Source: Octopus vulgaris (taxonomy: Eukaryota). Taken from it: a stretch of DNA of 64,000 nt. A program made the translations under genes and the position numbers. How positions within the stretch are numbered: the stretch's first letter is position 1; each line of letters begins with the position of its first letter. A model generated the notes under the pieces. The model was given only the letters and a program-made list of their open reading frames with translations. It was not told the DNA's origin and searched no databases. This document shows, piece after piece, positions 1,774 to 63,460 of this stretch. Where the stretch lies: contig OX597818.1 of assembly GCA_951406725.2 (NCBI GenBank), positions 96,472,001-96,536,000 of the forward strand, in the 5' to 3' direction.

Positions 1774-2172
1774 GAAATATTTTCACCAATCTCCAGTCAT
1801 GATTATCAAAACGCGAAGCCGGTGGACTATGATAATATATATGTATGTATATATACACCTACATATATATATATATATATATATATATATATAATACATA
1901 CACACATACACACACACACACACACACACACACACACACACACACATACATATATATATATATATATATATATATATATATATATATATATATATATAAT
2001 TTACACAAATATACATAATATATATGTAGGTGTATATATACATACATATATATTATCATAGTCCACCGGCTTCGCGTTTTGATAATCATGACTGGAGATT
2101 GGTGAAAATATTTCGATTTCATAGTATGTTAAGGAGTCTTTAGTCCATGTTGTTTCAATGAGTGTTTGTCGT
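1774..2172. repeat. fold-back insert 1 (about 95-bp inverted arms around a microsatellite spacer), probably PLE-related
   Basis: 1774-~1870 is the reverse complement of ~2019-2114. The spacer is (TA)n/(CA)n and unique sequence continues to ~2172. Confidence 0.8.
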
Positions 2173-2544
2173 ATACATTCATGCATACATACGTGTCCGT
2201 ACAAGCATACACCATGCATACATAATACATACATACATACATACATACAGACAGACAGACAGACAGACAGACAGACAGACAGACAGACAGACAGACAGAC
2301 ACGCATATGTAAATGAGACTGAATTAGTTAACCACCTGAAGACTCAGTACAGTTAGTCTTGTTACCAGCGTTTACCTGATTCTATGATTTAGATGCTCAA
2401 CACTCAACAGTTTACTCTGTCTAGCTGCAAGACGGTTGCAACGGGTGGCCAATTTCACAACTATAAGTAGCGAGCGTGCTACAAGAATACGGTCTTCGAT
2501 TGGAAAGAAAGTCTTGTTGCATTTCAAGATAAGAAAGGAACAAA

Positions 2545-3290
2545 TACTTATTTGGTCTTATTTGATATATTTAATTCAGATATTTCCGCTCCTTAATGAC
2601 ACAATCCCATGCTTTCGGCATATTGTTGAGTCATCAGGCTGTTTTCCTCTAAATAATGTTAGAATGATCTGAAAAAAAATCATAGTCAAATGAAGCAAGG
2701 TGGGAGAGTATGGAGGATGAGGCAAAAATTCAATATTGAGTTCTGTAATTTTTTTCCTTTGTGACTTGGGCAATCTGTGATGTCGAACCTCTTTGATTGT
2801 TCAATGACGGGCATGTTTCAGCAAATGTTTGCGCAATGCTTTCAACCGACGGCTATACTTCTCCGCATACTAAGGCGGCGAGCTGGCAGAATCGTTAGCA
2901 CGCCAGGCGAAATGCGTAGCCGTATTTCGTCTGCCGTTACGTTCTGAGTTCAAATTCCGCCGAGGTCGACTTTGCCTTTCATGCTTTCGGAGTCGATAAA
3001 TAAAGTACCAGTTACGCACTGGGGTCGATGTAATCGACTTAATCCCTTTGTCTGTCACTGTTTGTCCCCTCTATGTTTAGCTCCTTGTGGGAAATAAAGA
3101 AATATATATACTTCCCAGCATTAACTGTTTTGGCTTAACACTTCACGATAGACAACATCCTAAGTATCCCATCTTTGGACATAAAAAAAGAAACAGTTTT
3201 GTAAATTTCACAAATCTTATTTGACCACCTTCAAAACACTCCCCTTTCTCATAGTCTCCTATCGAGACTCAAATCTGTTCCTTTTCAGCG
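2545..3290 (-). mobile_element. decayed mariner transposase 3' part, interrupted by a SINE
   Basis: Minus-strand LNIEFLPHPPYSP matches the mariner HPPYSPDLAP motif; KTVNAGKY lies on the other side of the SINE. Confidence 0.65.
2874..3103 (+). mobile_element. SINE, family D (GGCGGCGAGCTGGCAGAA head)
   Basis: tRNA-like A/B boxes (TGGCAGAATCG..GTTCAAATTCC), internal GAGGTCGACTTTGCCTTTCATCC block and AATAAAGAAAT tail. Approximate TSD TATACTTC. Several other copies occur in the window. Confidence 0.8.
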
Positions 3291-3344
3291 ATGTTGTCAG
3301 CGTGGAGAAGAATCAGAAGTCACACGTTGCCAAGTCGGCAGAAT

Positions 3345-3573
3345 AGGATGAAAATCCAGTTTAAAGGTCACCGTTTCAACACCGTTGTTGAGATCCAGAG
3401 TGAATAACAGAAGGTCCTCGACTTGCTTACGGAAAACGACTTCCAGACCGGCTTCTCAAATTGGCAGCAACGCTGGAACCGGTGTATTGCTGCGCAAGGT
3501 GACTACTTCGAAGATGATGTTAAAACTTATGTTTTAAACATAACTAGTCCGGAAACGTTTTGATACAACCTCG
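3345..3573 (+). mobile_element. mariner transposon 3' fragment with right TIR
   Basis: Translates to MKIQFKGHRFNTVVEIQSE*QKVLDLLTENDFQTGFSNWQQRWNRCIAAQGDYFEDD, a typical mariner C-terminus, and ends TTTGATACAACCTCG-TA. Confidence 0.75.
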
Positions 3574-4373
3574 TACACCTTCAATTGAACGGGGTGCTTG
3601 TCTTCCAAGACTTCCAAGACTTGCTGTCTTAATCTACAACCGATTGGACTGGAGCAATATAAAATGAAATGCTTTCACTGGAGTATACAAAGCACTGTCC
3701 AGTCCGGAAATCGAAACTGTAATCTTATGCTCATGAATGCAATATGCTGAACACTAGTCCACTCGCCTTAACACGTTCGCAACAAGAAATAACAAAATTT
3801 CAGAGCGATAAACGAGATAAAACAGATCAACATTAAAACAATTTTTTAAAAATTATTTCTATAGAAATAAGATATCTACCCTTGATACTCGGTCTCCGGA
3901 AAACATTGCAGCATCATATAGAGAAAATTGGGTTTCATCAGGAGAGGTTATAAAAGATTTATATATAATAGCTGTGCTATGCTGTTTATGTAGAAGTATG
4001 AATAGTCGATAGTGTACGAAAATACCCAGTCACACGCAACCCATAAATCTTTCATAAATACCGCTGATGAAAACATCCTTGCAATTTGTATGTATTAACT
4101 GATAGAAATAACATATTCTCTGACAACTGCGAATTGACCTTAAACACCTTATTTCTATGGGACCAGATGTTGTCTTTTGAGTATTACTCTGTTTTAGATA
4201 ATTAATAGAATTGAACTTGATATTTTTCGTTGCTATTAAGAATTCTGGCCAATTTATATTTCCATGATAGAATATTTCACTGCAGCGCGGTGAAGCAAAA
4301 TACACACATACATACGGGCATACACACATACATAGATACGCATATATATATATATATATATATATATATATAA

Positions 4374-61964: not shown

Positions 61965-62098
61965 TACTCTTTACTCTCTCTTTTACTCTTTTACTTGTTT
62001 CAGTCATTTGACTGTGGCCATGCTGGAGCACCGCCTTTAATCGAGCAACTCGACCCCGGGACTTATTCTTTTGTAAGCCCAGTACTTATTCTATCGGT
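61965..62098 (-). mobile_element. SINE family C tail fragment
   Basis: Nearly identical to 29745-29845. Confidence 0.85.
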
Positions 62099-62733
62099 AT
62101 ATGTACATGATTGTGAAATTTCGTGGGAGCATTGCTATGTGTATGTATTGTGAGTTGGAAGCGATATGAGCAACAAGTGTGAACGGTTCTTTAGAATTCT
62201 AATGCATACAGCGCCATATTTTGTTAAGCGTTCGTGAAGATAATTCCCCAAAGTTGATAGCGTTATTCTTAGCAAGAAAATACGATGGAGGAAGGCATTA
62301 TTTTCATATTGTACTGTAGTTTTGATGGAGTTGCAGTAGTGAGTAAAAACTTCTCATACAGTATTTTAACTGGTGTGGGAAACTATGCTCTTCACTCGTG
62401 TTGCAACAGTGCACCTCAGTGCAAACTATTTGGAGGATTTTTAGAAATGAGATTTCATTCTGTGAGGAATACGAAAGAACACGTGCATGCGGATGCTTTC
62501 CATCACCTGTTTAGTAGCCTCAGAGTATTTATGTATAAAGCAGCGGGAGATATGATAGTTTGACCAAAAGAACCGGCTATTGAAAGCAAAATTAAATATG
62601 TTTTAAAAAATGAATTTGGCCAAATTTGGACATACGGCAGTTTAACATAATAGCAAAGATATATGTATGTGTGTGTGTGTGTGTGTGTGTGGGTGTGTGT
62701 GTGTGTGTGTGTGTGTGTGTGTGTGTGTGTTTG

Positions 62734-63063
62734 TAAATATAATATGTGACAATTATTCGGTAGCCATGATAAAACTCCGAGTTTCGGATGTCGGGGCGGA
62801 AACCCACGTCGCCATCTCTTCCGTTATCAGGCCATCAAAAAAGTGCTATGAAAATGACCGTTAAACAATTTCCCTGTGTTTAACGGTCATTTTCATAGCA
62901 TAACTGAAGAGATGGTGGCGTGGGTTTCCGCCCCGACATCCGAAACTCGGAGTTTTATCATGGCTACCGAATAATTGTCACATATTATATTTATAGATAA
63001 ATTCCTCTATTCACATAATATCGCGATCTCTTTCATTCTTTTGTTGTCTTACCATTTCTATCA
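62734..63063 (+). mobile_element. fold-back insert 5: PLE-like end with a hammerhead motif in both arms
   Basis: 62734-62867 is inverted to 62877-62993, with a 17-nt deletion in the right arm; T-rich tail to (TA)n. Confidence 0.85.
62900..62960 (+). ncRNA. type I hammerhead ribozyme motif
   Basis: ATAA-CTGAAGA-GATG..CATC-C-GAAAC-TCGGA-GTT-TTATCA. The inverted copy retains the full stem I TGATAA/TTATCA. Confidence 0.65.
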
Positions 63064-63097
63064 ATATATATATATATATATATATATATATATATAT

Positions 63098-63460
63098 AAG
63101 CAATAATAAATCTCAGAGCGAGTTATAAACAGTAGCTACAACACATCGTGACGTATATTTGCCATTTAAATATGGCTAACCCCTAAGGGTGGATGCTACT
63201 GTAGTTTGTAGCCCCAGGAGGACACCTCCTCCCGCTGGCCATAGACACACTCACACGCCGATGACGGATCAATACACAGAAACTCGAGTCCGTGTGTATC
63301 ATAAGTTGAAGACGGGAAGGATGGCTTCCCTTTGCAAATACTGATAGGGCACAGAAAGTGTGTCTATGGCCAGCTGGAGGAGGTGTCCTCCTGGGGCTAC
63401 AAACTACAGTAGCATCCACCCTTAGGGGTTAGCCATATTTAAATGGCAAATATACGCCAC
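63098..63460 (+). mobile_element. fold-back insert 6: PLE-like end, 104-bp inverted arms with a hammerhead in the spacer
   Basis: 63148-63251 is inverted to 63357-63460; flanked by (TA)n on both sides. Confidence 0.85.
63252..63296 (+). ncRNA. type I hammerhead ribozyme motif (U4>C, weak stem II)
   Basis: CACACG-CCGATGA-CGGATCAATACACA-GAAAC-TCGA-GTC-CGTGTG: 6-bp stem I, palindromic ACTCGAGT stem III, GUC cleavage triplet. Confidence 0.65.

Follow-up and report, generated by a model that had tools for sequence, protein, structure and literature searches.

What are the short inverted repeats that sit in octopus microsatellites, some of them with hammerhead ribozyme motifs, and how did they arise? 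We addressed this question in a 64,000-nucleotide stretch of the Octopus vulgaris genome (contig OX597818.1, positions 96,472,001 to 96,536,000; hereafter the window), in which an initial annotation, made from the sequence alone, had noticed six such inserts and proposed that they represent non-autonomous Penelope-like elements (PLEs) or retrozyme-like elements. The answer that we consider probable is that the inserts are short, 5′-truncated, head-to-head insertions of six Penelope-like families, likely made by priming on both strands of a (TA)n target.

Self-BLAST of the window recovered all six annotated inserts, as local inverted matches at 1775–2113, 4374–4641, 43623–43985, 51125–51353, 62734–62993 and 63145–63463; we refer to them, from left to right, as S1 to S6. 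A masked re-scan returned the same six together with a weaker inverted pair at 27812–28439, and a search of the window for repeat pairs found microsatellite pairs only. As had been claimed, every insert has a TA, TG or CA tract at one or both outer ends (6/6), and the six share no mutual similarity, the best cross match being 15 nt long (E 0.07).

Families with one-sided tails

Throughout the genome (2.8 Gb, 227 contigs), each of S1–S6 belongs to a separate multi-copy family, none of the arms being single-copy. First-look candidates numbered 142 for S1, 1413 for S2, 3340 for S3, 3862 for S4, 3417 for S5 and 2225 for S6, and 40 of them were scored per family. In the fetched loci, each family has two fixed 3′ end points, one without a tail and one with a tail of about 30–100 nt, whereas the inner junction is variable. 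The tails, thought in the initial annotation to be unique, are in fact common to whole families. Two-arm copies, those of the window included, were counted for S2 (24), S3 (12, from 24 loci), S4 (25), S5 (20) and S6 (25). Exactly one tail is present in 98 of these 106 copies and no copy is tail-less, the other eight being arranged otherwise; selection with one-tailed queries penalises tail-less copies but not two-tailed ones. Contact with a microsatellite is seen in 92 of the 106. In the window, the tails are on the plus strand in S2 (about 4642–4679, with (TA)n on both sides), S3 (about 43986–44069, together with the long arm) and S5 (about 62994–63063), and on the minus strand in S4 (about 100 nt, at the left end) and S6 (about 63100–63147). 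Outside microsatellites, duplication-like matches of 11–15 nt were found in 7 of 13 S6 copies, a count that has no control, and in the single S2 copy (1/1).

Two loci have unusual arrangements. At L160:3050–4403, about four S6 fold-back units stand head to tail, either as a re-amplified palindrome or as an assembly artefact, and L262:1–8458 is an 8.4-kb palindrome (96%) with S5-family coding remains in both arms.

S1 departs from this pattern in the window. Its left arm is sense on the plus strand, its right arm carries extra upstream sequence to about position 2170, and its 3′ ends point inward, opposite to the orientation of S2–S6. Other copies of the family (L130, L144) do have an inverted 5′-truncated copy and a tail at one end, which the window copy lacks. 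Since the 3′ ends face inward and the window arms, flank included, are 98% identical over 107 nt but only 75–88% identical to other family copies, the S1 window copy probably arose when an old insertion was later duplicated locally in inverted form.

A 125-nt repeat is present at 43447–43569 and 62538–62663, the two copies being 85% alike and each ending in a TG tract immediately left of S3 and S5, respectively. Because this common repeat ends in the TG tract beside both, the S3 and S5 fold-backs seem to have gone into the microsatellite end of another element.

How typical such inserts are was estimated in 60 evenly placed 10-kb stretches (600 kb, contigs C1–C27). These contain 67 local inverted repeats, of which 38 abut a microsatellite, 16 do not, and 13 are pairs of short interspersed elements. 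Random 300-nt intervals abut a microsatellite in 325 of 4184 cases. The sample gives approximately one microsatellite-abutting fold-back per 16 kb; the initial annotation had put the figure at about one per 10 kb. Extrapolation of the 38 leads to about 1.8 × 10^5 in the genome, most of which have not individually been shown to be PLEs. Sixty sequences from the sample fell into 52 clusters; together with the 142–3862 first-look candidates per family, this bears out the high copy number and diversity proposed earlier.

Coding sequence and tandem units behind the fold-backs

Extending the arms upstream, as the initial annotation had proposed, led to PLE open reading frames (ORFs) for S1, S2, S4 and S5. 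S2 lies directly downstream in all 15 loci found with the upstream stretch. The ORF, present in 9 of the 15, matches Pfam GIY-YIG above cut-off and has a C-x4-C-x2-C linker of the Neptune/Nematis type. Of the Neptune traits, a CX2-5CxxC linker and a CCHH endonuclease, it is the linker that the S2 ORF displays, a motif that Nematis has as well; S1 is fragmentary here. S4 follows the end of the endonuclease in 11 of 15 loci. Reverse transcriptase (RT) motifs and GIY-YIG occur in loci of this family, and L263 and L264 hold the inverted arm, RT motifs, endonuclease and tail end about 3.4 kb apart. Upstream of S5, remains of the endonuclease or thumb were found in 5 of 25 loci. Translations of both S4 and S5 carry a CxCX5C linker before the endonuclease, and their targets are (TA)n; this linker defines the Hydra clade (PMC8557442). 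As to the Hydra traits of RWK and DKT motifs and a single ORF of less than 3 kb, only broken S4 and S5 fragments were seen. For S1, the 6 loci listed of 23 have a GIY-YIG end some 300 nt further upstream, the family remains match a Neptune-type ORF of 781 amino acids (aa), and the match at L265 is 53%. The coding links of S1 and S5 come from motif or tblastn evidence only, and clades were assigned by motif and similarity rather than from a tree.

Because these families run upstream into RT or GIY-YIG coding sequence, S1, S2, S4 and S5 are truncated autonomous PLEs: by their motifs and similarity, S1 and S2 are 5′-truncated ends of Neptune-type protein-coding elements and S4 and S5 of Hydra-clade ones. 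The PLE-type origin, the hammerheads, the inverted copy of the 3′ end and the (TA)n targets assumed in the initial annotation are upheld.

S3 and S6 are of a different kind. Here the sequence past the tail leads back to the hammerhead, as expected of tandem units, with a spacing of 491–499 nt in S3 (4 of 5 loci) and 353 nt in S6 (L164); the longest ATG frames are 50 aa in the S3 unit and 84 aa in the S6 unit. Judged from sequence, S3 and S6 are non-autonomous, ORF-less tandem monomers of the retrozyme type with one predicted type I hammerhead each. A young S6-related array at L273:2098–4765 consists of about two inverted and five to six direct units of 359 nt with canonical hammerheads; it has a tail at one end and (TA)n at both, and is about 69% like the S6 unit. 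The view that the inserts form a non-autonomous population holds for S3 and S6 but not for the other four families.

Two observations concern the coding elements themselves. In the S4 family (L209, L212, L215, L263), the linker preceding the endonuclease contains a long asparagine-rich (AAT/AAC) stretch, like that of rotifer Penelopes. Moreover, a GIY-YIG search of the genome returned mostly a young Neptune-type family distinct from S1–S6 (L196:906–4587, also L197–L199), which has many intact 781-aa frames, an upstream frame of 330–380 aa and, close to the 3′ end, what is probably a U3-A8 hammerhead.

Hammerhead cores

Hammerhead residues are numbered according to the established convention. 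In alignments of 23, 56, 29, 38, 76 and 35 segments (S1 to S6), all six families display the type I topology with a palindromic stem III; at family level, a Watson–Crick 3-8 pair and three stems are present, and we treat them as predicted type I hammerheads. Cores are canonical in the S3, S4 and S5 families, S4 having a stem II region of about 60 nt. The core pair of the S2 family is U3-A8. For S1, 19 of the 23 segments were used, and of these aligned copies 17 have A3-U8 and the other two G-U. The S6 family mostly has U4C, one subfamily having a canonical core and full stem II. Covariation in S6 exceeds that of shuffles (0/500) and is driven by one subfamily split. Since most S6 copies combine U4C with a mismatch at the base of stem II and are nevertheless widespread, the ribozyme may be weakened or dispensable in the U4C subfamilies.

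The window copies themselves are mostly damaged (Table 1). A strict type I descriptor matched perfectly in the right arm of S5 and with one mismatch in S3, S6 and the mirror arm of S5; with a relaxed core, only the S5 right arm is intact among the six inserts. Of the three full hammerhead topologies initially reported, all are present, but that of S3 carries G12A and that of S6 carries U4C and a broken stem II. Conversely, motifs described as decayed turned out in S1 and S2 to be partly family core variants, and in S4 to be a truncated hammerhead with a long stem II. We infer that most genomic copies are decaying passengers. An Rfam scan of the window was dominated by microsatellite-driven microRNA matches; among the 150 of 285 matches listed, none reached the gathering score and none was a hammerhead. 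A lone perfect-core type I match on the minus strand at 18782–18825 has one relative in the 600-kb sample.

In that sample, an intact relaxed-core hammerhead is present in 8 of the 38 microsatellite-abutting repeats compared to 0 of the 29 others and 0.3% of shuffles. The relaxed descriptor gave 33 matches in all, versus 4 on the reversed sequence. The 3-8 pair in these 33 is C-G in 23, U-A in 7, G-C in 3 and A-U in none. G3-C8 is also the core pair of a further, very abundant fold-back family (L326:2907–3260, with relatives at L283, L299, L323 and L333–L357), represented by 12 binned matches in the 600 kb, some of them from one insertion. Of 53 segments, 32 have the exact core; stem I measures 7 bp and stem II 5 bp, and the triplet is UUU. 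The family has 3333 first-look candidates and the same one-tail shape as S2–S6; no ORF link was found for it. Taken together, the predicted hammerheads of these families use all four Watson–Crick pairs at positions 3-8 (C-G, U-A, A-U and G-C).

Table 1. Inserts and predicted hammerheads of the window
Feature	Position	Strand	Evidence
S1, Neptune-type PLE 3′ end duplicated convergently (3′ ends inward) around central microsatellite	1774..2170		sequence, self-BLAST, family loci
S1 hammerhead remnant, A3-U8 core; A15.1 lost, G at cleavage position in window copy	1795..1828	+	sequence, family alignments
S2, Neptune-type PLE 3′ end, head-to-head fold-back	4374..4679		family loci, ORF link
S2 hammerhead, U3-A8 core, palindromic stem III; junction shortens stem I in this arm	4509..4553	+	sequence, family alignment
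Additional seventh insert, inverted arms of ~160 nt around broken Hydra-type GIY-YIG remnant	28597..29621		self-BLAST, tblastn E 1e-5 at 29011-29112
S3, fold-back of ORF-less ~495 nt tandem monomer, retrozyme-type	43623..44069		family loci
S3 type I hammerhead, family canonical, window copy G12A	43762..43820	+	descriptor, family alignment
S4, Hydra-clade PLE 3′ end fold-back	51050..51340		family loci, coding link
S4 hammerhead, 3′ half only	51281..51298	+	sequence, family alignment
S5, Hydra-clade PLE 3′ end fold-back	62734..63063		family loci, coding link
S5 mirror hammerhead, U4G	62767..62829	-	descriptor
S5 intact type I hammerhead: canonical core, GUU triplet, palindromic stem III	62900..62958	+	descriptor, family alignment
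S6, fold-back of ORF-less 353-nt tandem monomer, retrozyme-type	63100..63460		family loci
S6 type I hammerhead, U4C core = family majority; stem II broken	63252..63296	+	descriptor, family alignment

The seventh insert is older than the six and was absent from the initial list. Two other remnants lie in the window: inverted repeats of about 245 nt at 10332–12280, with TA at both outer ends, which by eye resemble a Tc1/mariner-type DNA transposon, and two long plus-strand frames (500 and 430 aa) at 31842–34634, the second with RVT_1 (E 5e-33), left by a long interspersed element.

Formation of the fold-backs and comparison with known systems

Read 5′ to 3′ from each end of the target, both arms are antisense copies that start at one of the two end points. 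Such an arrangement would be expected of priming from both nicked strands. In such a mechanism, the element's enzyme would nick both strands of the (TA)n target and prime reverse transcription at each nick, presumably beginning at the tail-less start site on one strand and at the tail start site on the other; the two copies would stop early and then be joined. The ORF-less S3 and S6 monomers would borrow PLE protein, and the hammerheads would process element RNA as dimers, via the palindromic stem III. How PLEs form inverted repeats and tails has been called undefined in the field (PMC8557442). An anole PLE protein was shown to cleave and extend both strands in vitro, with two internal start sites bounding the tail (PMC11167929).

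The main competing explanation accepts the same elements but has a single complementary DNA prime itself, by folding back or on an antisense template, with the endonuclease then resolving the product and leaving a one-sided tail. Self-priming has been proposed for rotifer Penelopes from palindromes at junctions (PMC3846280), and a tail that is a product of resolution (PMC8557442) would suit it. It also explains the strict one-tail rule, the agreement of the two arms at subfamily sites (83–94%, versus 57–62% when shuffled) and the 29 private variants common to both arms, set against 205 found in one arm. Arm lengths were compared in 92 of 94 loci: it is the tail-less arm that extends further upstream in 48 copies and the tail arm in 23, the remaining 21 being about equal. 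The near-symmetric 21 fit self-priming. A first strand primed at the tail, however, sets the maximum length of any copy made by folding back on it, so simple folding back from such a strand cannot give the 48 copies with a longer tail-less arm; these favor two primings, as does the both-strand extension seen in vitro (PMC11167929). We consequently consider self-priming a serious but distinctly less likely explanation. It is improbable that, in every one of the six families, the short fold-backs move as non-autonomous units in their own right and are re-copied as palindromes. Thousands of first-look candidates per family, S2 junctions that cluster about 127–155 nt upstream of the end and the tandem S6 units at L160 would all fit; however, inner junctions vary from copy to copy, four families continue into coding sequence, and the S2 clustering may come from query selection.

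Two further explanations can be largely set aside. Artefacts of long-read folding back or of assembly are very improbable overall and more so for S2–S6, although for S1, with its nearly identical arms, the chance is small rather than minimal. No short-read contig among those listed crosses the center of the locus studied here, and the comparison with independent reads covered S5 and S6. For these two, contigs from 4 runs, which belong to as many as 4 studies, have many joints across palindrome centers. Among the fold-back copies, arms differ by 1.9–7.8% on average, with the 205 arm-specific variants, and ends fall at fixed element positions. On these grounds, we rejected a general assembly artefact. 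As to the A-to-I editing raised in the initial annotation, one run that is possibly of RNA showed only sequence differences also seen in DNA-type runs. Miniature inverted-repeat transposable elements (MITEs) or fold-back DNA transposons, suggested by short inverted repeats beside TA, are hardly credible: instead of equal terminal repeats and a fixed interior, we see unequal arms with a one-sided tail and variable centers, and intact hammerheads in the sample occur in 8 of the 38 microsatellite-abutting repeats and in none of the 29 others. The links to RT/GIY-YIG coding sequence largely refute this origin, which we rejected as well.

Several observations weigh against priming of PLE copies from both strands, or against parts of this picture. 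The loci are top matches to window-shaped queries, so copies with only the tail-less end, and the proportions of arm lengths, are subject to bias. Arms of the same subfamily and the 29 two-arm private variants fit copying from one template equally well, and start-site use in vitro was the same on both strands, meaning that the one-tail rule is not itself predicted (PMC11167929). Duplication-like matches of at least 11 nt are rare in S3, S4 and S5 (2/24). None of the protein pieces tested from S1 and S5 received a family from Pfam, and a piece from S4 narrowly missed the cut-off of 22.6, at 22.4. As for the ribozymes, covariation did not rise above shuffles in S5 (121/500; 43 of 76 segments) or S1 (88/500), only 2 of 8 segments had a folding energy with z below -2, and the hammerhead fold was not obtained for most segments.

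In kind, the basic result is ordinary: hammerhead-bearing Penelope remnants at (TA)n. Its value lies rather in a very large natural set of PLE junctions with a clear one-tail rule in one genome, and in retrozyme-type monomers whose PLE signature lends structural support to their use of PLE enzymes. Should the natural A3-U8 and G3-C8 families prove both active and unreported, search descriptors would have to be widened, and the core pair would be seen to exchange freely. A more far-reaching joint reading is tentative and, in our view, rather doubtful. It would have one animal genome contain working hammerheads with all four Watson–Crick 3-8 pairs, the natural A3-U8 and G3-C8 forms escaping standard descriptors, and about 10^5 one-tailed fold-backs that record an asymmetric two-strand priming common to Penelope elements and retrozymes and that may be among the main sources of double-stranded RNA open to editing.

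How do these families relate to those already described? Among natural hammerheads, U3-A8, U4C, a U-U mismatch at 10.1-11.1 and a palindromic stem III are described variants (PMC3088659; PMC4209133). A3-U8, as in S1, and G3-C8, as in the L326 family, were not found among the natural ones in the accessible text of the literature searched, G3-C8 being reported there as an engineered partial rescue; Lunse et al. 2017, Przybilski and Hammann 2007 and supplements, which lie outside that literature, may cover them. A literature search combining hammerhead ribozyme and octopus returned no dedicated paper; in a study of octopus repeats, 31 PLE families are given as recently active (PMC13282606).

For PLEs, an inverted copy, a tail, (TA)n preference and hammerheads have all been published (PMC8557442; PMC4209133). 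Like endonuclease-bearing (EN+) PLEs (PMC8557442; PMC3846280; PMC11167929), the octopus families have an inverted 5′-truncated copy beside the direct one, a tail at one end, a hammerhead in the terminal repeat, (TA)n targets and heavy 5′ truncation. Truncation is extreme in octopus, yielding hairpins of 200–450 nt at the density found in the sample, and tails of about 30–100 nt compare with 30–40 in published PLEs. By clade, the S2 linker and the ORF matched by S1 remains are compatible with Neptune, and the S4 and S5 linkers agree with Hydra.

Retrozymes are known, including from a mussel (PMC7229834), and a preprint by Li et al. 2026 (10.64898/2026.07.22.740005) derives them from PLEs. S3 and S6 share with non-LTR (long terminal repeat) retrozymes of both reports the ORF-less tandem monomers, each with a single type I hammerhead, and the long target duplications. 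The S3 unit is slightly above their range of 150–450 bp, and most S6 copies differ by U4C and the stem II mismatch. The word 'inverted' occurs 0 times in the main text of PMC7229834 and once, in a reference, in the accessible text of the preprint. It is in the PLE signature of an inverted arm plus a tail that S3 and S6 differ from these non-LTR retrozymes.

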